Below are positions 2,615 through 62,709 of a stretch of DNA of 64,000 nucleotides, one piece after another. Under the pieces are notes generated by a model. That model did not search any database. It was not told where the DNA came from and saw only the letters and a program-made list of their open reading frames with translations. The stretch's first letter is position 1, and each line of letters starts with the position of its first letter. The translations under genes were made by a program, and so were the position numbers. The DNA comes from Acidobacteriota bacterium (GTDB lineage: Bacteria; Acidobacteriota; Vicinamibacteria; Vicinamibacterales; JAKQTR01), in the NCBI GenBank assembly GCA_037133015.1, contig JBAXOX010000011.1, positions 4,479 to 68,478 on the forward strand. The letters are read 5' to 3'.

Positions 2615-3570
2615 TTCGCTATCTGCTCGGGCGCCTCGCGTGGACGATGCTGGTGATCTGGATCGTGGCCACCAGTGTGTTCGTCATCTACTTCGCCGTG
2701 CCGCACGACGTCGCTCGCCTGATCGCCGGGCGGCAGGCGAGCGCGGAAACGGTGCAACTGGTGCGGGCCAGGCTGGGCCTCGATCAACCCGCCCACATCC
2801 AGTACGCGCAGTTCCTCGGGCGCCTGGTCCGCGGGGATTTGGGCTACTCGTTCAACACGCAGGAGTCGGTGAATACGATCATCGCCCGCGACTTTCCCGT
2901 CACGGTGTCGCTCGCCTTGGGCAGCGGCATCTTGTGGCTGGTACTCGGCGTGGGCGCGGGCGTGCTGGCGGCGACGAAACGACGGTCGGCCACCGACCGC
3001 ATCATCACCGCCGTCGCGCTCGGGTTCTACTCGATGCCGACGTTCCTGGTGGGCCAGTTGTTGCTGTTCTTCCTGTTCTTCCGGCTCTATATGGCCGGAT
3101 TCGAATTCTTCCCGCCCGGATCGTATGTCGCGTTTGGCGACAACCCTCTGCAGTGGGCGCGGTTCCTTGCGCTCCCGTGGCTGTCGGTGGCGCTGGTGAC
3201 GGCGGCCACCTATTCGAGGCTCACGCGGGGCGCCATGCTCGACGTGATGGACGAGGACTACATCCGGACGGCGCGGGCCAAGGGCTTGACCGAATCGCGC
3301 ATCACGTACCGCCACGTGCTCCGCAGTTCGCTCACACCCGTGGTCAGTCAGTTCGGCATCGATATGGGGAGCCTGCTCGGCGGGGCCATCGTCACCGAGG
3401 TGGTGTTCGGCCTGCCGGGCCTGGGCCGCGAGGTGGTGCAGGCCATCACGACGCAGGATTTGCCGATCATCATGGGCATCACGATCCTGTCGACCGTGCT
3501 GGTGGTGGCCGCCAACCTGGTGGTTGACGTGGCGTACGGCCTGCTCGATCCGCGCGTGCGGCTGGAATAG
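2611..3570 (+). CDS. ABC transporter permease (DppB/OppB-like)
   Basis: ATG at 2611 overlaps the previous stop (ATGA). The N-terminus MIRYLLGRLAWTMLVIW and the loop YIRTARAKGLTESRITYRHVLRSSL are typical of DppB/OppB permeases. The track start at 2431 lies inside the preceding gene. Confidence 0.85.
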   Translation: MIRYLLGRLAWTMLVIWIVATSVFVIYFAVPHDVARLIAGRQASAETVQLVRARLGLDQPAHIQYAQFLGRLVRGDLGYSFNTQESVNTIIARDFPVTVSLALGSGILWLVLGVGAGVLAATKRRSATDRIITAVALGFYSMPTFLVGQLLLFFLFFRLYMAGFEFFPPGSYVAFGDNPLQWARFLALPWLSVALVTAATYSRLTRGAMLDVMDEDYIRTARAKGLTESRITYRHVLRSSLTPVVSQFGIDMGSLLGGAIVTEVVFGLPGLGREVVQAITTQDLPIIMGITILSTVLVVAANLVVDVAYGLLDPRVRLE

Positions 3571-5317: not shown

Positions 5318-5452
5318 ATGAGTCTGGCACCTGGGATGCGCTTCGGCCCGTATGAGATCGTCGCCCCGCTCGCAGTGGGACTTCGCCGTAGCTCGAGGAG
5401 AGCCGGAGACGAGCGCAGGCGGGCCGTCGCCGACGTGAGAGTCCGCGCATGA
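5318..5452 (+). CDS. 44-codon upstream ORF mimicking a kinase N-terminus, ATGA-coupled to the kinase
   Basis: Translates as MSLAPGMRFGPYEIVAPLAVGLRRSSRRAGDERRRAVADVRVRA. The first 18 aa match the true N-terminus of the kinase at 55117 (MSLAPGTRLGPYDIVSAI) at 12 of 18 positions. A GGGGAG sits 9 nt upstream of the ATG. The stop TGA (5450-5452) overlaps the kinase ATG (5449-5451). A homologous uORF lies at 59303-59440. It is below the track's ORF size cutoff. Confidence 0.5.
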   Translation: MSLAPGMRFGPYEIVAPLAVGLRRSSRRAGDERRRAVADVRVRA

Positions 5453-52456: not shown

Positions 52457-55117
52457 CTACTTCAGACCCTTGATCACATACAGCTGGCTGGCGTCCCTGT
52501 TGTAGCCGTAGGCGGTCGCGCCGCTGGGAGACACGATGAGGTTGCTCAGGCCGCTGACCAGCGACTTGAGCGGATGGACCGTCTTCCAGGCGGATCGGCG
52601 ACCGGATGCGACGTCCAGTCGGTCGATCTTGCCCTCGACCAACTGTCGCTGGTAGACAAACAGCGACTGCCCGTCCGCGCTCCAGCCGGCCACGTTATCG
52701 CCGTCCAGCGTACCCGCCACCGGATGGCAGACCGGCTTGGTGATCGTGCATGTCACGACCTTTCCGGCCGCGTCCACCGCGACGATGCGCGACCCGTCCG
52801 GCGAGATCAGATTCGTTCCCATGACGGGCAGTGTCACACCGCCCGGCAGCAGCGTTGTTATCTGGCGGCCGTCCGCCGACAGAATGAAGACCGATGGCCT
52901 GGACCCGGGGCGCGTGGCTTGAATCACCAGCCGCCCATCGGGAAGCCAGCCCCCCCATGAGACCACCTCGACCGGGCCCATGTCGACGATCTGCGGTTGC
53001 CCGGTGCCGGTGGGCACGATCGAGAGCTTCGGCGGTGTCTGCAGCGATCGAACCAGCGCCTTCTTGCCGTCCGGAGACAGTCCCACGCCCGACCCGTCCG
53101 CAATCCGGACAGGCTGCGCCTCCTTCGGCTGCCACGCGTAGACAGACCCTAGAAATCCGCCGCTGTCGCCACTCCCGTCGAATAGAAGCGTGTGGCTCGT
53201 CGAGAACGCAGTCAGCGTGGCCGACTCTCGCCACGACCGATCGAGAGGCGTCGGATCGGATCCCTCGACCACTTCAATGCGAGAGCTGATGCGATCGAAC
53301 GACACGAGGGCGTCGCCCTCGGCCGAGATGTCGTGCAGTGTGATCGCGCCCGGCGCACGAAACACCGGGCGCTGGTGTCCGGCAAGGTCCAGGCTGAAGA
53401 TCGTGGTCTGTCTTCCCGAGGTCTCTGTTGCCGCAAACCAGACCTCGTTCGACGGCGTCCAGGCGAGCGCCCACCAGTCGAAGAACGGCGAGCTTTGGGT
53501 GACCAGTGTCCCGGACCGGTCGACGATGTTCACTCTGTACGCAGAGGCCACGTGGAGGTCGAAGTAGGCCACGTGGGCTCCTGACGGGGAGACTCGCGGC
53601 GCCGCGTAGATGCTCATGCCTTCCGATGTTCGGCCAGCGGTGACAGGCACCTCGGCCAGCACGTGCCCGACCGGGTACTCCAGCGCCTGGCTGTGCGCAT
53701 CGTCGCGAACCACAGCCACCGTGTTGTTGGGACCGAAGTCGGCGAACCTCACCCTCTCCAGTTCTGGGCGTCTGGCGCCACCGGTGAGCGAGCCCTTTGC
53801 CAACGTCCCAATCCGCCAGTAGGGATTGCCGGCGGAGACGGCGGATTCGTTGAGAATGGCGAGTTCTCCCGAGCGCGAGACCCCAAGCAGGTCGGCTCCC
53901 GGAAATCCGAGCGACCGGTATTCGGAGCTGTCGACGCTGGTGAGGTACACGCCGCGCGGCTGTCGTTCCCAGTCGGCGCTGTAGACGATGGTGCGGCCGT
54001 CGGCCGCAAAGCGTGCGGCAAAGACGAACCCGTCCTCGAAGGACACGGGTTTGAAGGTGAGGTCAGCGGCCCCCGCCGATTTCGGTGCAGACGCGCCGCG
54101 GCCCAGATACCCGGCGCTCGCGCCGAGGACGAGGGCGGCGACAACAGCCGACGCGATGAGGAGACGCGCCCGCGGGCGCCGCGCGGACCCGACCACCGCC
54201 GCACCGCTGAGGGCGGTGCCGGACGCCGATCCAGACAGCGCCTCGAGCGCAAACGCGATGTCGCGCGCGTTCTGAAAACGCTCGTTTACGTTCTTCTCCA
54301 GACAGTGCCGAATGATGCGATCGAGGGCGGGCGACAGATCCGGCCGCGAGCCGACCAGTTCCGGCGGGTCGAGGGTCAGGATTGCCGTCATCGTGTCGGC
54401 CGCCGTGTCGCGCTGATACGCGCGCTGGCCGCTCACCATTTCGTAGAGCACCGCACCCAACGCAAACAGATCGGCGCGCGCATCGACGGCCTGACCGCGA
54501 ACCTGCTCGGGCGCCATGTAGCCGACGGTGCCCAACACGGAGCCGGGATCGGTGGCGGCCATCGTCTGCATACCGCCCGAGTTCTCGGCCGCTGTCGCGT
54601 GTCGCGCGAGACCGAAATCGAGGATCTTCACCTGCCCGTCGTCGAGCAGGAAGATATTCTCCGGCTTGAGGTCGCGATGGACGATGAGCTTGCCGTGCGC
54701 GGCCCCGAGGCCTCGCGCGATCTGCACGGCGATGTCGACCGCTTTGCGAACCGGTAGCGCGCCGCCGGACAATCGTTCCCGCAGCGTCTGTCCCGCGAGC
54801 AACTCCATGACGATGTAGACCGCGGCCTGGCCGGGGCCGGCCTGCCCCAAGCCACCAGAAGAGGTCTCAGGTTCGTGGAGGCCCGTGTCGAAGATGGCGA
54901 TAACGTTGGGATGCGACAGGGCGGCAACCGCCTGCGCTTCGCGTTCGAACCGTGCCCGCCGGCCAGGATCGTCAGCGAACGAAAGCGGCAGGACTTTAAT
55001 CGCGACGTCGCGGCCAAGGCGCGGGTCTTTCGCCTTGTACACCTCTCCCATCCCGCCGGCACCGATGGCAGAGACGATGTCGTACGGGCCGAGTCTGGTT
55101 CCTGGCGCGAGGCTCAT
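52457..55117 (-). CDS. Membrane Ser/Thr protein kinase with TolB-like beta-propeller (paralog 2)
   Basis: ATG at 55117 (MSLAPGTRLGPYDIV) with AGGAG 7 nt upstream. Kinase motifs GAGGMGEVYKAKD, VAIKVL, HRDLKPENI, DFGLAR, GYMAPEQ. One TM segment (LLIASAVVAALVLGASAGYL). The C-terminal region has propeller repeats (SPDG..). Confidence 0.9.
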   Translation of the reverse strand: MSLAPGTRLGPYDIVSAIGAGGMGEVYKAKDPRLGRDVAIKVLPLSFADDPGRRARFEREAQAVAALSHPNVIAIFDTGLHEPETSSGGLGQAGPGQAAVYIVMELLAGQTLRERLSGGALPVRKAVDIAVQIARGLGAAHGKLIVHRDLKPENIFLLDDGQVKILDFGLARHATAAENSGGMQTMAATDPGSVLGTVGYMAPEQVRGQAVDARADLFALGAVLYEMVSGQRAYQRDTAADTMTAILTLDPPELVGSRPDLSPALDRIIRHCLEKNVNERFQNARDIAFALEALSGSASGTALSGAAVVGSARRPRARLLIASAVVAALVLGASAGYLGRGASAPKSAGAADLTFKPVSFEDGFVFAARFAADGRTIVYSADWERQPRGVYLTSVDSSEYRSLGFPGADLLGVSRSGELAILNESAVSAGNPYWRIGTLAKGSLTGGARRPELERVRFADFGPNNTVAVVRDDAHSQALEYPVGHVLAEVPVTAGRTSEGMSIYAAPRVSPSGAHVAYFDLHVASAYRVNIVDRSGTLVTQSSPFFDWWALAWTPSNEVWFAATETSGRQTTIFSLDLAGHQRPVFRAPGAITLHDISAEGDALVSFDRISSRIEVVEGSDPTPLDRSWRESATLTAFSTSHTLLFDGSGDSGGFLGSVYAWQPKEAQPVRIADGSGVGLSPDGKKALVRSLQTPPKLSIVPTGTGQPQIVDMGPVEVVSWGGWLPDGRLVIQATRPGSRPSVFILSADGRQITTLLPGGVTLPVMGTNLISPDGSRIVAVDAAGKVVTCTITKPVCHPVAGTLDGDNVAGWSADGQSLFVYQRQLVEGKIDRLDVASGRRSAWKTVHPLKSLVSGLSNLIVSPSGATAYGYNRDASQLYVIKGLK

Positions 55118-55289
55118 CGAGCACTCCTGCCCGACGTCACCGGGCACCTGATTCGTAGGTACGCGACCTCACGTGCACCGAGACGACTGCCGGGGGCAAT
55201 CCATGTAGGGAAACCTGACGGTCATTATAGCCGTGTTAGCGCGGTATCATGATATACATTTGGTTGTACTGTATGTATATTACGAAAGC

Positions 55290-56423
55290 ATGATCAGCCG
55301 ACCCTTCTGGCAGCGCCGGCTCGAGCAAGCGTGGCACGACGCCCCGATTGCCTGGCTCTGCGGGGTTCGTCGCTCCGGGAAGACCACACTCGCAGCGGCC
55401 CTCGGATCCAAGCGGATGTTCCATGTGAACTGTGACCTGCCGGTGACGGAAGACATGGTTCGGGACCCGCAGGTCTTCTTCCGCTCCGTCGGCAGACCCG
55501 TCGTCGTCTTTGACGAGATCCACCAACTTCGGGACCCTGCCCGCCTCCTGAAGATCGGCGCAGACGGGTTTCCGAAGCTGAAGATCCTCGCGACCGGTTC
55601 GTCGGCGCTTGCCGCCAGCAGGAAGTTCCGCGACACGTTGACGGGGCGGAAGCGGACGGTCCACCTGCTTCCTGTTCTGTGGGAAGAGCTCGACGCCTTC
55701 GGCGTGACGCTGACCGATCGCCTGTTCCGAGGCGGGCTGCCGCCCGCGCTGCTCGCCGACGCCAAGACCCCGGCGTTCTACCGGGAGTGGCTGGATTCGT
55801 TCTTCGCGCGGGACATCCAGCGCCTCTTCGGATTCCGGGACATCAACCGCTTCAACGCGTTCTTCGAGTACGTCCTGCGGCAAAGCGGCGGGCAATTCGA
55901 GATCACCTCCGCCTCGCGCGACCTTGGCATTACGCGACCCACGGTCGAGAGCCATCTGCGTGCGCTCGAGATCACACATGCAGCCACGGCGATTCGGCCG
56001 TTCCATGGCGGGGGTCAGAACGAGCTGACCAAGCAGCCAAAGGTCTATGCGTTCGACACCGGGATGGTGAGTTTCGCGCGCGGGTGGGACCCGCTCCGCC
56101 CCGACGACCTCGGCGTGCTCTGGGAGCATCTGGTGCTCGAACACCTCCAGGCGCACGTCCCTGACACGCCCGTGCGCTATTGGCGGGACAAGGCCCAGCA
56201 CGAGCTCGACTTCGTGCTCGCGACTCGACGCAATGCCGTGGATGTCATCGAATGCACGTGGAATCCCGCCGACTTCGACGTCACGGCGCTTCGCGTCTTT
56301 CGCGGCTACTACCCCAATGGACGGAACTTCCTCGTCACACCATCCGGTGATCCGGCCTACACCAAACAGTTCGGCAGGCTGGACGTGCGCGTCTGCACAC
56401 CGAGCGGACTGCTGCTCACATAG
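55290..56423 (+). CDS. AAA-family ATPase with DUF4143-like C-terminal domain
   Basis: ATG at 55290 follows an unusually AT-rich stretch. Walker A GVRRSGKTT, Walker B VVVFDEIH. The C-terminal WEHLVLEHL...ELDFVL region matches AAA_14/DUF4143 proteins. Confidence 0.7.
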   Translation: MISRPFWQRRLEQAWHDAPIAWLCGVRRSGKTTLAAALGSKRMFHVNCDLPVTEDMVRDPQVFFRSVGRPVVVFDEIHQLRDPARLLKIGADGFPKLKILATGSSALAASRKFRDTLTGRKRTVHLLPVLWEELDAFGVTLTDRLFRGGLPPALLADAKTPAFYREWLDSFFARDIQRLFGFRDINRFNAFFEYVLRQSGGQFEITSASRDLGITRPTVESHLRALEITHAATAIRPFHGGGQNELTKQPKVYAFDTGMVSFARGWDPLRPDDLGVLWEHLVLEHLQAHVPDTPVRYWRDKAQHELDFVLATRRNAVDVIECTWNPADFDVTALRVFRGYYPNGRNFLVTPSGDPAYTKQFGRLDVRVCTPSGLLLT

Positions 56424-56570: not shown

Positions 56571-59306
56571 CTACTTCTGCCCCGCCGCCAGCCAGTTGAC
56601 GACGACGGTGATGAAGGAGGAACTCCGGCGCTGTTCAAGCACTTTGACGAGAAATCGATTGCCGTCCTTGGCGACGGCGTACTGACGATGGTTGTTGCCC
56701 GTGCCGGTGCCGGAGTAAACAGCGCCGGTGGGAAAGAGCGCCTTGGGCACGCCGGCCTCGAAGTCCTTCGCCGTGGAGACGCTCGCCGACGTCAATGTGC
56801 CGTCCAATGCGAGAAAGAATAACTCTTTGCCGTCGTCCCGCCACATCGGCAACGTGCCGCCGTCGCGCGACACCATGTAACTGCCGCCCGCGGCGGGAAA
56901 CGGCCGGACGTAGACCTCGGGGCGGCGGGATTCGTTCGAGTCGTACGCGATCCAGCGCCCGTCCGGCGAGAATGCTGCGTTGTCCTCGTCGTACGGCGTC
57001 CGCAGGAAGAGCACGGGTTTCGTGTCGCCGGAGAGCGGAAGCAACCACAGGTCGAAGCCCGTTGCGGTGGCCTGATCGCTGTACGCGAGCAAGCGCCCGT
57101 CGCGCGACCAGTCCGTCACGTAGTTCGGCGTATCCGACTTCAACGCCAGTTTCTCCGGGCTGCTTTGGTTTGCCGGCCTGATGAAGATGTTCGCCGGACC
57201 ACCTCGATTCGACACAAACGCAATCTGAGAGCCATCGGGTGACCAGACGGGCCCGAAATCGGCTGCCGGATCGAACGTGAAGCGCGAGGGCGCGGCGGCA
57301 CGCGCGAGGTCGATCAGCCAGACGTCGAGGTTGCCCGGCGACCCGGTCAGCAGCCCCACGGCCACGCGGCGCTCATCCGGACTGAGCGCAATGTTGTAGT
57401 AGGCCCCGATATCGCCTGCCGTGCCGAGCGGCGTGCCGGCCCGGTCGAGCCACGTGGGTCGTGCCGTTCGTCGTCCGCTGCCGGATACGTACGTCAGCAC
57501 GTTGCTCGTCGTCACCGAAAACGCGCCGTATGCCGTATCGTCGACGCCGACCTGCTCGGCCACCGACACCGCGTCCGCGGTCGTTTGCCGCGTGTTGACA
57601 TCGAACGACTGCGCCATCAGGCTCCCGCCGCGTGCGAACAACAGATGCCCCGCCGCGTACAGGCCATTCGAGTCCGATGGCGCGATGGCCACGCCCTCCT
57701 TCGAGTCGAGCGAGCCCGTGCGAATCTCGCCGGTCGTGCCGTCGCCGGTCCCGACGAAGTAGAGGAAATGGCGGCCGTCCGGCAGAAACGTCGCCCACCG
57801 GTGGGACGTCTCGCCTTTCGCGAGTGCCGTCACCGGCGCGGGTGCCCCGCCGGCCGACGTCACGCGCTGAAGCGGGCCGTTGAGGGTGGGGGAGAAGAGG
57901 ATGACGTTGTCGCGATTCCACGTGCCGCCCCGCTCGGACGGAGCATCGCAGAGCTCCGCCGGAGGTCCGCCGATCGCCGGCACCGTCTTCAACTTGTTGG
58001 CGCTGAAGAAGCCGATGGTTCGGCTATCGGGTGACCAGAACGGATGCGTGGCCCACTCGGTGCCCGGCAGGGGACGCGCCACGAGCGTCGAGAACGGCCG
58101 GATCCACAGCGCAAGGGCACCTCGCAGCGAGGCGACGAAGACAACCTGCCGTCCGTCGGGAGAGACGGCAAACTGCGGCGTCGGCCCGCCGAAGAGCGAA
58201 TTCTCCGGCGCGCCCATCGTGAACTGGATCGGATCCACCACCGGCGCGGCTTCGCGACGCTGCAGCACGATGATCGTCGCGGCGCCGACCAGCGCGACAC
58301 CGAGCACCGCGGCCGCGATCCACGCGAACCGCTCGCGGTTTCGCCGATGCGCGACGACGGGCGCGGGTACCCCGGCCGCGCTGCCACCATCGGCAATCCA
58401 CCGCAGTTGGAGCAGCAGGTCGTGTGCCGTCTGAAACCGGGCGTCGGGATCTTTTGCGAGGCATACACCGACGACGTGGTCGAGCGCGGGCGATGCCACC
58501 GGAGTCATCTGACTGACTGGCGGGGGCTGCTCCTTGAGAATCGCGCCGAGCAGGCCCGCTTGGCTCTTGCCGGCAAACGCGCGACGGCCTGTGAGCATCT
58601 CGAAGAGCACGGCGCCAAACGCGAAGATATCGGTGCGGGCGTCGGCTTCCTCGCCTTCGATCTGCTCGGGCGCCATGTACTGGAAGGTGCCGAGGATCGT
58701 GCCCTGGGCGGTGAGCGCCTGGCCGGGCGGCCTGGGTGACGTCGCGAGCGCGGTCGGTGCGGCCCCGGACACGGCGCCGGCCGGTCCGCTCTTCGCGAGG
58801 CCGAAGTCGAGCAACTTCGCCTGCGTGGCGTCCGATCGCGCGCCGCCCAATTTCACCAGCATGATGTTGCCGGGCTTCAGATCGCGATGCACGATGCCCT
58901 GTCGATGCGCCTTGTCGAGCGCGCTCGCGATCTCGGTTCCGATCTTGAGCGCGTCGGCCAGCGGCAGCGCGCCTCGCTCGAGCCGCGTGGCGAGCGTCTC
59001 GCCCTCGAGGTACTCCATCACGAGGTAGTCGACAACTGACCCGCCGGCTCCCTGGGGTGCGCCGGTCGACCCCACGTCGAACAGCGTGCAGATGTTCGGG
59101 TGATTCAGGGCCGAGATGCTTTTGGCTTCGCGCTCGAAACGGGCCTTGAAGTCGGGATCGGCGGCAAGCGCGGCGGGTAGAACCTTGATGGCGACCGTGC
59201 GATCAAGGCGCGTGTCGTTCGCCTTGTAGACCTCGCCCATTCCGCCGGCCCCGAGCGGTCCGAGGATTTCATAGGAGCCGAGCGTTGTTCCCGTGGCGAG
59301 CCTCAT
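56571..59306 (-). CDS. Membrane Ser/Thr protein kinase with TolB-like beta-propeller (paralog 3)
   Basis: GAGGMGEVYKAND, VAIKVL, HRDLKPGNI, DFGLAK, QYMAPEQ. TM segment FAWIAAAVLGVALVGAATIIVL. Propeller repeats WSPDS/LSPDE/WSPDG/FSPDG. The C-terminus reads ITVVVNWLAAGQK. Confidence 0.9.
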   Translation of the reverse strand: MRLATGTTLGSYEILGPLGAGGMGEVYKANDTRLDRTVAIKVLPAALAADPDFKARFEREAKSISALNHPNICTLFDVGSTGAPQGAGGSVVDYLVMEYLEGETLATRLERGALPLADALKIGTEIASALDKAHRQGIVHRDLKPGNIMLVKLGGARSDATQAKLLDFGLAKSGPAGAVSGAAPTALATSPRPPGQALTAQGTILGTFQYMAPEQIEGEEADARTDIFAFGAVLFEMLTGRRAFAGKSQAGLLGAILKEQPPPVSQMTPVASPALDHVVGVCLAKDPDARFQTAHDLLLQLRWIADGGSAAGVPAPVVAHRRNRERFAWIAAAVLGVALVGAATIIVLQRREAAPVVDPIQFTMGAPENSLFGGPTPQFAVSPDGRQVVFVASLRGALALWIRPFSTLVARPLPGTEWATHPFWSPDSRTIGFFSANKLKTVPAIGGPPAELCDAPSERGGTWNRDNVILFSPTLNGPLQRVTSAGGAPAPVTALAKGETSHRWATFLPDGRHFLYFVGTGDGTTGEIRTGSLDSKEGVAIAPSDSNGLYAAGHLLFARGGSLMAQSFDVNTRQTTADAVSVAEQVGVDDTAYGAFSVTTSNVLTYVSGSGRRTARPTWLDRAGTPLGTAGDIGAYYNIALSPDERRVAVGLLTGSPGNLDVWLIDLARAAAPSRFTFDPAADFGPVWSPDGSQIAFVSNRGGPANIFIRPANQSSPEKLALKSDTPNYVTDWSRDGRLLAYSDQATATGFDLWLLPLSGDTKPVLFLRTPYDEDNAAFSPDGRWIAYDSNESRRPEVYVRPFPAAGGSYMVSRDGGTLPMWRDDGKELFFLALDGTLTSASVSTAKDFEAGVPKALFPTGAVYSGTGTGNNHRQYAVAKDGNRFLVKVLEQRRSSSFITVVVNWLAAGQK

Positions 59307-59440
59307 CGCCCGCGACCCACAGGTGTCGTCGCTCGCCGTCGCTCGGAACGACTCTGAATCCGTCGACGTGTCGAGGGGCCTTCGCCCAGCTTGGCGAGGA
59401 TCTCGTACGGGCCGAGGCGAGCGCCGGGGACAAGGGGCAT
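59303..59440 (-). CDS. 45-codon upstream ORF mimicking a kinase N-terminus, ATGA-coupled to kinase paralog 3
   Basis: Hand reverse-complement gives MPLVPGARLGPYEILAKLGEGPSTRRRIQSRSERRRATTPVGRGR. It is colinear with the uORF at 5318 (12 of the first 18 aa identical, shared ERRRA in the Arg-rich tail). Its TGA overlaps the kinase ATG (TCAT at 59303-59306 on the plus strand). TATACT lies 14 nt upstream of its ATG. Confidence 0.5.
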   Translation of the reverse strand: MPLVPGARLGPYEILAKLGEGPSTRRRIQSRSERRRATTPVGRGR

Positions 59441-59503
59441 GTTGGGGTGGCAGGAGTATAGCACCGCAGCGAACGGCGCCCTGGCACGGGACTCAACGTC
59501 TCA

Positions 59504-59518
59504 GAGACCGACGGTCTC
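59504..59518. promoter_or_regulatory. Palindrome GAGACCG-A-CGGTCTC between the islet operon and the uORF/kinase unit
   Basis: A perfect 7-1-7 inverted repeat. The central gap is too tight for a normal terminator loop, so a protein-binding site is as likely as a terminator. Confidence 0.2.
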
Positions 59519-59548
59519 ATCGCCGTGTCACAGGGGATCCCGGGGAGA

Positions 59549-60085
59549 CTATTTCGGAAGGGTCCCCGTAATTACCCGTTTGAATGGGGCGCCATCCGCA
59601 ATCGGAAACCCGGACTGGCCCTGCTGAAATGTTAAGCCATTATTACCGAGGTACTTTGTGGTCTTCCCGTAGGCAGTACCCTGCAGGTGCAGAGTGCAGT
59701 GGTACTTTTCGGTGGCGCCGGAAAGCAATTGTGCCGTTGCGTTATCGACGAAGATTCCGACTTCCGCCTCGCCGCGAAAATCGATGCCGGTTTCCTTGGA
59801 CGTCGTCGTCGGAATCGCCCCGGTTGCTCCTCCTTTACCGTAGAAATTACTCTTGAGCAATCCCACCACACAGTCCACCTGATACTGATCGACCTCTGGC
59901 GGAATATGGGTCAAAACGATGGGAACGGTGAGTATGAAGTGTGGTCCCGGGATTGTTTTGTCCTTGCCTTCGGTGCTTGCGGTGGATGACGTGACTGGTC
60001 CCTGACCACCGGATGCCGCGTGAGACAGTTGGGTCGTGGATGGAATCAGGACCATCAGCGCGAACACGATATGTGCAGTTTTCAT
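59549..60085 (-). CDS. Secreted hypothetical protein (lower-GC gene)
   Basis: Signal peptide MKTAHIVFALMVLIPSTTQLSHAAS. 178 aa with no recognisable motif. Hand counts of six consecutive 60-nt lines give about 48-63 % G+C. Confidence 0.6.
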   Translation of the reverse strand: MKTAHIVFALMVLIPSTTQLSHAASGGQGPVTSSTASTEGKDKTIPGPHFILTVPIVLTHIPPEVDQYQVDCVVGLLKSNFYGKGGATGAIPTTTSKETGIDFRGEAEVGIFVDNATAQLLSGATEKYHCTLHLQGTAYGKTTKYLGNNGLTFQQGQSGFPIADGAPFKRVITGTLPK

Positions 60086-62292: not shown

Positions 62293-62490
62293 ATGAAATA
62301 CAAAGTCGCCCTGAGAAAGTCGAAGGAAGGCTACAGCGTTTCGTGTCCCGGCCTGCCGGGTTGCTGGTCGCAAGGCAAGACCGAACGAGAGGCCCTCGAG
62401 CACATCCAATTTGCCATTCGGGAGTACCTCGAAGCGGTCGCCATCATCTCAAAACACTCCAAGATTCGGGAAGTGGAAGTCGCGATATAA
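62293..62490 (+). CDS. hicB: HicB-family antitoxin (short, UPF0150-type)
   Basis: MKYKVALRKSKEGYSVSCPGLPGCWSQGKTEREALEHIQFAIREYLEAV is the typical HicB N-terminal domain. G+C is visibly low (~48 % on the line I counted). Confidence 0.8.
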   Translation: MKYKVALRKSKEGYSVSCPGLPGCWSQGKTEREALEHIQFAIREYLEAVAIISKHSKIREVEVAI

Positions 62491-62496
62491 ACGGCC

Positions 62497-62709
62497 GTGT
62501 CAAAGCTAACCGGTGTCAATCATCTTCGGGCGGTTCGAGCTCTCGAGAAGGCCGGGTTCACCATTGCCACCCAAGGCAAACACATCGTGATGACTGACGG
62601 CACTCGAATCGTCACGGTGCCTCGCAACAATCCGGTCAACCAATACACGACGGGCGGTATCGTTCGCGACGCCGGCATCACAATCGAGCAGTTCAAGAAG
62701 TTGCTCTGA
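62497..62709 (+). CDS. hicA: HicA-family mRNA interferase toxin
   Basis: 70 aa. LRAVRALEKAGFTIATQGKHIVMTDG..IVTVPRNNP...GGIVRDAGITIEQFKKLL fits the YcfA/HicA dsRBD-like pattern. It starts 6 nt after hicB. Confidence 0.75.
   Translation: MSKLTGVNHLRAVRALEKAGFTIATQGKHIVMTDGTRIVTVPRNNPVNQYTTGGIVRDAGITIEQFKKLL

Follow-up and report, generated by a model that had tools for sequence, protein, structure and literature searches.

A severed kinase-gene head upstream of an Acidobacteriota Ser/Thr kinase appears to be a decayed example of an apparently undescribed variant of gene-5'-end-replacing insertion

The 64,000-nt stretch of DNA analysed here (the window) belongs to the 87.6-kb contig JBAXOX010000011.1 of an Acidobacteriota metagenome-assembled genome and carries the genes of three protein kinases, called kinases 1, 2 and 3 below. 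The start of kinase 3 (database protein P0001) is preceded by a short upstream open reading frame (uORF), and it is this uORF, together with the DNA that joins it to the kinase, that is the subject of this computational analysis. The uORF is opened by a minus-strand ATG at 59440, runs for 45 codons as MPLVPGARLGPYEILAKLGEGPSTRRRIQSRSERRRATTPVGRGR, and closes with a TGA at 59305-59303 that overlaps the start codon of the kinase, the two ATGs being 134 nt apart. A TATACT hexamer at 59460-59455 lies exactly 14 nt 5' of the uORF ATG, and a TG at 59463-59462 turns it into an extended -10 box (TGcTATACT). Both a Shine-Dalgarno site and a -10 box are missing ahead of the kinase 3 ATG, and the Pfam Pkinase domain begins at residue 12 of the kinase. 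A consensus scan of 59150-59700 for sigma-70 promoters and intrinsic terminators found none, the scanner needing a -35 box, which is absent from extended -10 promoters. No tRNA was found by a scan of the whole window, and Rfam 15 gave no match to the window at the gathering score and two chance-level matches only to the kinase 3 region at an E-value threshold. An earlier note on this DNA had described the 45-codon ORF, its frame, the spacing of TATACT and the relation to a similar ORF 5' of kinase 1 (locus 1), and all of these are present.

Relatives of kinase 3 with 64-77% identity were collected by protein and contig look-ups (loci are cited below by L numbers and proteins by P numbers). In L163 (P0004, 74% amino acid identity to kinase 3), the same promoter and start codon, GATGCTATACTCCTGCCACTCCAGC-ATGACCCTTGCCCCCGGCGCTCGCCTTGGCCCGTACGAG, are present and the reading frame continues without interruption via G-A-G-G into MGEVY, and the genes in L162 (P0002, 77% amino acid identity to kinase 3) and L081 are likewise uninterrupted. 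We found that the head of the uORF is identical to the L163 N-terminus at 51/63 nt (81%), versus 41/66 nt (62%) for the present N-terminus of kinase 3; the uORF and that present N-terminus share only 38/63 nt with each other. On both sides of the insert, identity to the ortholog L160 is 71-87% across the promoter and kinase domain (84-87% in the latter). Because the same promoter and N-terminus run uninterrupted into the kinase in relatives, the uORF is read as the gene's own former head. Its kinase-like part ends at G-E-G, at which L163 and L162 represent empty sites, and the approximately 137 nt that separate G-E-G from MGEVY in kinase 3 comprise a 71-nt spacer and the 22 codons of a new N-terminus. 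Taken together, these data make it probable, with moderate confidence on our part, that the uORF represents the native 5' end of kinase 3, made up of its promoter, its start codon and the 21 codons that open it, which was severed by an insert of approximately 137 nt, and that this insert is a degenerate copy of a cassette that recurs at this codon in many TolB-type Ser/Thr kinase genes of Acidobacteriota. The kinase mimicry suggested in the earlier note is, on these alignments, to be replaced by common descent, the first 21 codons of the uORF being the N-terminus that the kinase itself formerly had. The very short leader proposed in the same note is plausible, given that TGCTATACT-14 nt-ATG stands before the kinase itself in the cassette-free L163, and a short leader is the normal arrangement of this kinase family, because a -10-like hexamer lies 8-14 nt 5' of the start in 41/186 of its starts. 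Four close relatives of kinase 3 (P0006, P0009, P0012 and P0015) are annotated from MGEVY, just past the glycine loop; the MGEVY start of P0006 reflects only the end of its contig (L161), and the others may hide further head disruptions.

In such GC-rich DNA, an open tail of 24 codons is not unusual (probability approximately 0.6, estimated from composition); homology, rather than the open frame, is the non-chance evidence. A profile of four uORF peptides retrieved no fewer than 42 different proteins, 41-90 aa long and in most cases 44-48 aa, with E values of 1e-8 to 1e-18; these are annotated as hypothetical, read M.L.PG.RLGPYE[IV]....G.GGP[AP]S.R....RELRRGLA[EV]A[KQ].., and contain no Pfam domain. 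The 45-codon frame is the one common to these peptides and to about ten loci, which bears out its selection as the conserved frame in the earlier note, as does a stop in ortholog L160 within the frame of the competing 83-aa ORF.

Scanning 158 related loci from genomes and metagenomes with an N-terminus profile revealed kinase-head fragments 5' of complete kinases. At the orthologs L159 (P0003) and L160 (P0008), a canonical cassette occupies the same codon as the insert in kinase 3, and a head fragment is followed by a spacer, by AAGGAGAGG as a strong Shine-Dalgarno site and then by the new start MK[TP]GD.LGPYR[VI]L[ED]KLGEGG. Filled and empty sites also occur elsewhere: L124 is filled, and the 89%-identical L146 and L119 are empty, with a single N-terminus that corresponds to the L124 uORF; in L085, likewise, the uORF corresponds to the N-terminus found in the relatives L134 and L130. 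With a covariance model built on the spacer (R1), and with the identical L085 and L086 counted once, ten strong copies were identified outside the window at 55-92 bits, every one directly 5' of a kinase start (L159, L160, L124, L161, L085/L086, L155, L165, L166 with three, and L167). Rfam at the gathering score gave no match to L159, L160, L124 or L085, the L166 cassette matched nothing in Rfam at E values up to 5, and we found no description of this arrangement of cassette and uORF in the literature. At L122 4100-4240, tRNA-like gene sequences surround a weak relative of the hairpin unit (29 bits, E 0.001), which hints that the hairpin part may derive from a more general repeat family. A presumed uORF in L072 was set aside, since it overlaps with the C-terminal end of the kinase that precedes it in tandem.

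The canonical cassette is approximately 130 nt long and begins directly after G-x-G-G with CCCGCCTYCGC. This sequence forms a terminal inverted repeat, CCCGCCTYCGC...GCGAAGGCGGG, that is present in all nine canonical copies (helix 1, 100% paired); its right arm doubles as the code for G-E-G-G, and an origin of the repeat in RNA structure is possible. The cassette end, GGCGAAGGCGG(N), encodes G-E-G-G, and a GGCGG direct repeat flanks both ends. Compensatory changes are found in the arms of hairpin 1 (GCTCGCG/CGCGAGC, GCTCAT/ATGAGC, GTTCGCG/CGCGAAC and TTCGTTC/GAACGAA) and in those of hairpin 2 (CTTCGGCGA/TCGCCGAAG, CTTCGGCGT/ACGCCGAAG and CTACGGCGAG/CTCGCCGTAG). In further helices, GCCAAG beside the Shine-Dalgarno site pairs with the Leu-Gly codons CTTGGC, and the start region CTCGATGA pairs with codons 10-12; both the Shine-Dalgarno site and the AUG of canonical copies are paired within helices. 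The replacement N-terminus that follows reads M-K/I-x-G-x-x-L-G-x-Y-x-V-L-x-K-L-G-E-G-G.

The conclusions are based on alignment A2, which covers only the spacer, and on the full-cassette alignment A4, made with exact references. Over nine sequences, 95% of cells are paired, compared with 29-44% in controls with slid partners; double, compensatory changes occur in seven pairs, and the observed values were reached by 0/500 shuffles. The L166 cassette folds at -84 kcal/mol (z = -3.36). Residues of the uORF tail vary through double changes that preserve the stems (RRGLA to RRSHA in L160 and RGLAE to RDLAV in L124), and because such compensatory changes produce non-conservative replacements, the tail does not appear to be constrained as protein. 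Judged from covariation, the canonical element is conserved at the level of base pairs and not at that of the peptide.

Kinase 3 resembles this family in several respects. The distance from the Tyr codon to the new start is 101 nt, compared with 104 nt in canonical copies, both being 2 mod 3, and the stop of the uORF overlaps the new start in the same way. A GAGCGACGGCGAGC-type motif has only two matches in the window at up to two mismatches, the other being in the locus-1 spacer, and local alignment of the kinase 3 spacer with the spacers of L155 and L161 gave p values of 0.003-0.005. The kinase 3 insert is thus a probable degenerate member of the cassette family.

The two other kinases of the window were examined for similar inserts (Table 1). 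Kinase 1 carries an N-terminus of the canonical type, MIGRLLGSYRVLSKVGEGG, kept in forward orientation, and its hairpin unit is inverted relative to every other copy, the locus-1 spacer scoring 44 in local alignment with the reverse complement of the L155 spacer versus 15.8 in shuffles. It may therefore be that the hairpin unit can invert or insert on its own, separately from the coding part. Like kinase 3, kinase 1 has no good Shine-Dalgarno site or promoter in front of its ATG. At kinase 2, a TATAAT box at 55229-55224 lies 23 nt 5' of a head fragment, and CAGGAGTGCTCGATGA resembles AAGGAGAGGACTCGATGA of the canonical cassette. With this head fragment, traces of one kind of event are present at all three kinases of the window. 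A gene for an AAA_14/DUF4143 ATPase (55233-56423, identified by Pfam) lies between kinases 2 and 3, and a gene pair at 62293-62709 on the plus strand encodes a 65-aa HicB-like antitoxin and a 70-aa HicA toxin.

Table 1. Coordinates of the features at kinase 3 and at the related loci of the window
Feature	Position	Strand	Remarks
uORF of kinase 3, 45 codons including stop	59303..59440	-	length and frame fit the uORF family of 44-48 aa
ATGA, uORF stop overlapping kinase 3 start	59303..59306	-	kinase 3 ATG at 59306-59304
Extended -10 element TGcTATACT, probable native promoter of the kinase gene	59455..59463	-	near-identical in L160 (GGTGCTATACTCCTGCCACTCCAGCATG), L163 and L165
Probable displaced ancestral start and 21 codons, MPLVPGARLGPYEILAKLGEG (beta-1 strand and first half of glycine loop)	59378..59440	-	51/63 nt identical to L163 N-terminus; contiguous with conserved promoter
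71-nt spacer, probable degenerate remnant of the structured leader of the cassette	59307..59377	-	same insertion point; ends CGATGA
GAGCGACGGCGAGC, putative relic of the 5' arm of hairpin 2 (canonical GAGCTACGGCGAGG)	59331..59344	-	13-of-14-nt motif match
Replacement N-terminus, 22 codons, MRLATGTTLGSYEILGPLGAGG, probably brought by the insertion	59241..59306	-	62% nt identity to orthologous N-termini
Kinase 3, Ser/Thr protein kinase with TolB/PD40 beta-propeller, 911 aa	56571..59306	-	
Locus-1 uORF, 44 codons from ATG, 5' of kinase 1	5318..5452	+	tblastn E 8e-7; ends ATGA on kinase 1 start
Locus-1 spacer, cassette hairpin unit inverted	5351..5426	-	R1 match on opposite strand, 28.2 bits, E 0.003
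Decayed third copy 5' of kinase 2 (..IAPGSRLGAREV.. then CAGGAGTGCTCGATGA)	55114..55200	-	without canonical start codon; ends ATGA
Palindrome GAGACCG-N-CGGTCTC	59504..59518	.	present, probably outside the feature
83-aa ORF	59269-59520		frame interrupted by stop in L160; without Pfam match

Whether the uORF is used is a separate matter, on which its junction with the kinase is informative. In 9/10 reliable copies, which have six different spacer lengths, the stop of the uORF overlaps the new start, as ATGA in L124, L160, L165, L166 (three times), L167 and kinase 1, as TGATG in L161 and as GTGGTAG in L085, and gene calls show the 4-nt overlaps. The distance from the Tyr codon to the start is 98, 101, 104, 107 or 128 nt, all 2 mod 3; L159, with 103 nt, is out of frame, and its uORF stops after 30 codons. 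L155 was excluded from the frame statistics because of an apparent assembly indel in the N-terminus of its kinase. Such preservation of frame suggests that translational coupling has been selected. In the mechanism that we propose, the native promoter and near-leaderless start would still drive transcription and ribosome loading, and the old ORF would run through the insert and stop on the new start codon; the insert would supply a new ATG with a substitute N-terminal beta-strand and glycine loop, leaving the kinase ORF intact. Ribosomes would translate the 45 codons and terminate on AUGA, the kinase being made by termination-reinitiation, and in canonical copies the ribosome on the uORF would unfold the sequestered Shine-Dalgarno site and AUG. 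Since kinase 3 has neither the hairpins nor a Shine-Dalgarno site, reinitiation is probably its only route, and we infer that termination-reinitiation at AUGA is the most likely way in which its product is made. A programmed bypass or frameshift linking uORF and kinase was rejected: the downstream N-terminus contains a complete conserved beta-1 strand and glycine loop, and take-off or landing signals are missing.

A number of observations weigh against the interpretation of the kinase 3 insert as a cassette and of the uORF as a coupling device. The covariance model R1 gave no match at the kinase 3 spacer (59307-59377), and the kinase 3 leader lacks the inverted terminal repeat and folds no better than shuffles (z 0.14), as is also the case for the kinase 1 leader (z 0.71); a structured switch in the window's own copies was accordingly dropped. 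The replacement N-terminus of kinase 3, MRLATGTTLGSYEILGPLGAGG, is of the ordinary kinase type and is not accompanied by a Shine-Dalgarno site, and the link to the canonical spacer consists of position, length class, the 13-of-14-nt motif (p approximately 0.003, uncorrected) and the state of the orthologous loci. The closest relative, P0002, has no cassette, and the kinase 3 insert could be an independent event; filled and empty states are patchily distributed in the identity matrix of the orthologs, and pairs of sequences cannot tell insertion from precise deletion. For frame preservation, p is approximately 0.05, an estimate from four or five independent in-frame length changes versus one frame-breaking change in copies that are not phylogenetically independent. 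Finally, the N-termini of the uORFs show no clear decay, with Tyr/Phe kept in 31/34 uORF heads versus 128/131 real kinases (p 0.10, ascertainment-biased), which could also mean selection at the peptide level.

The main rival to an inserted cassette is a local tandem duplication that affected the 5' end of kinase 3 independently and was followed by divergence, in which case the uORF would be a neutral relic and its resemblance to the cassette family coincidental. Such events do occur, as demonstrated at L073 2501-2690, where the 5' end of a kinase has recently and cleanly been duplicated in tandem. This duplication has a 116-nt period, takes in approximately 35 nt of upstream sequence and 27 codons, and provides a second, simpler route to a head fragment; the ordinary type of the replacement N-terminus and the failure of R1 at the kinase 3 spacer would agree with an origin of this kind. 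However, a duplicated spacer should resemble the region upstream of the uORF, as it does in L073, whereas the kinase 3 spacer does not (p 0.18), and the two N-termini share just the 38/63 nt given above, with the upstream one matching the orthologs. The canonical cassettes at the same codon in L160 and L159, together with three features that match the cassette family (the frame class, the CGATGA end and the GAGCGACGGCGAG motif), argue further against duplication, and we regard it as unlikely.

Two other explanations accept the uORF and differ over what it does. It may be a scar that is perhaps translated yet irrelevant, the kinase being started independently at its own ATG: canonical cassettes do possess the strong Shine-Dalgarno site AAGGAGAGG, L159 tolerates an out-of-frame, early-stopping uORF, and GC-rich DNA is likely to contain a 24-codon open frame by chance. 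This view is opposed by the pairing of the canonical Shine-Dalgarno site and AUG within helices, the lack of a good Shine-Dalgarno site or promoter before the ATGs of kinases 3 and 1, and the ending of the uORF on the start codon in nine of the ten copies despite their different spacer lengths; an uncoupled scar thus seems improbable. The uORF may alternatively encode a regulatory small protein, a 45-aa mimic of the beta-1 strand and glycine loop with an arginine-rich tail that would act on kinases or their partners. Although the N-terminal motif is well kept (Tyr/Phe as counted above), most copies are 44-48 aa long and the frame is preserved, the N-terminal part varies exactly like the N-termini of the host kinases and is the N-terminus of cassette-free relatives, while in the tail the base pairs and not the residues are constrained, as the changes in L160 and L124 indicate. 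In addition, the tails of kinases 3 and 1 share almost nothing with the canonical tail, the L159 uORF ends after 30 codons, and no Pfam domain was matched. We consider a dedicated small protein very improbable.

The inserted-cassette reading is extended by loci that illustrate how copies may be exchanged. L166 10001-16460 (ENA ERZ25039459 contig_13525) contains three tandem kinase paralogs in a chain of uORFs and kinases in which every junction is a 4-nt overlap; the cassettes of these paralogs are 100% identical, compared with 71-84% for the uORF regions and approximately 45% for the C-terminal halves. In L165 1230-2330 (JGI Ga0163199_1036164), a promoter and head like those of kinase 3 (80% identity) precede a canonical cassette and a kinase body unrelated to kinase 3; heads and bodies of genes seem to be shuffled at the glycine loop or the cassette, which would serve as a recombination joint. 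P0146 has the look of a cassette from which a part has been deleted in frame. All this is compatible with gene conversion or transposition among paralogs and with loss through recombination of the glycine-loop direct repeats; with regard to the mode of mobility, gene conversion between paralogs would explain the identical copies equally well. We tentatively propose, while retaining some doubt, that a non-autonomous cassette of approximately 130 nt homes to the glycine-loop codons of Hanks-type kinase genes, spreads among Acidobacteriota paralogs and can be precisely removed, that it delivers a universal replacement beta-1 strand and glycine loop with a structured leader, that the decapitated native start becomes an obligatory coupling uORF, and that kinases 1, 2 and 3 represent decayed insertions.

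Head fragments without a cassette were also noted, with entire small genes between them and the next complete kinase, namely a HEPN-like ORF in L001 (~2036-2500), a ribbon-helix-helix antitoxin-like ORF in L059 (~1704-2500) and a permease gene in L029 (~948); the gene-head region seems to be a site of larger insertions as well. In addition, short GC-rich repeat units of other kinds stand in frame in L081 (~3140-3200), in P0004 and P0007, in L160 (738-765), and in P0142, P0144, P0158, P0147 and P0153, among them ..SPQASSLRLRSGQAG.. within a kinase domain, LRLRSGQAG within a uORF glycine loop and ALRQAQGDLEQGRK within a uORF head, and these look like intragenic insertions resembling repetitive extragenic palindromic (REP) elements that are read through as protein. 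Upstream of the kinase 3 promoter, the palindrome GAGACCG-N-CGGTCTC to which the earlier note had drawn attention is indeed present. However, palindromes of this type (7+1+7) number 11 in the window compared with 9.2 expected by chance, and the one at kinase 3 is absent from the orthologous promoters of L160, L163 and L165; it carries no weight for these reasons, and a role as operator or terminator was dropped.

Integration into a gene 5' end with provision of a new N-terminus, as described for dusA-specific integrative and mobilizable elements (IMEs) and for SXT at prfC (PMC8409611), is by analogy the nearest functional parallel. In those cases too, insertion occurs within the first codons of a conserved gene, a substitute 5' coding sequence restores the ORF with a changed N-terminus and the original 5' end is left as a fragment. 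Those elements, however, are 20-100 kb long and carry an integrase and their own promoter, whereas the cassette has approximately 130 nt, no protein and no promoter, would keep the promoter and start of its host in use through the overlapping uORF, and recurs in many paralogs of one family. [quoted passage not shown] They differ in that no target-site duplication can be separated here from the GGCGG direct repeat of the glycine-loop codons, and in that all cassette copies share one orientation, one codon and one gene family; we know of no partner transposase for the cassette.

Palindromic elements of Rickettsia are inserted in frame in genes. GTAG-tagged REPs can be intragenic (Di Nocera et al. 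2013, PMC3733652). The cassette shares with REPs its short GC-rich hairpins, of which hairpin 2 in L124 and L166 (CTACGGCGAG..CTCGCCGTAG) has CTAC/GTAG ends, the occurrence of the hairpin unit in either orientation (inverted at kinase 1), and a weak relative between tRNA genes in L122. Unlike REPs, it has a low copy number in the approximately 1 Mb searched, gives strong matches at one kinase codon only, is joined to 20 replacement codons with an ATG and a Shine-Dalgarno site, and splits and restarts the ORF where an in-frame element would be read through. Upstream ORFs that are translationally coupled by an overlapping AUGA are familiar in bacteria, as are leader ORFs that open a sequestered ribosome-binding site. 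The 4-nt overlap of stop and start and the base-paired Shine-Dalgarno site and AUG of canonical cassettes, which an upstream ribosome would open, are similar; in the present case, however, the upstream ORF would be a decapitated piece of the regulated gene and not a dedicated leader, and no stalling or sensing motif is evident in it.

If the interpretation given here is correct, a small, protein-less DNA element enters the most conserved motif of a kinase family without killing the gene, and the cassette would be a reversible module that rewires both the translation and the N-terminus of signalling kinases. This would explain dozens of hypothetical proteins of approximately 45 aa in soil metagenomes and the kinase genes that gene callers start at MGEVY, and would lead to a rule for annotation, namely that M.L.PG.RLGPYE....G.GG with an arginine-rich tail 5' of a kinase denotes a displaced gene head and not a new protein. 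Translational coupling on near-leaderless mRNAs would find a natural test case in such genes, and the cassette would account for some of the plasticity that the very large families of kinase paralogs show in Acidobacteriota.

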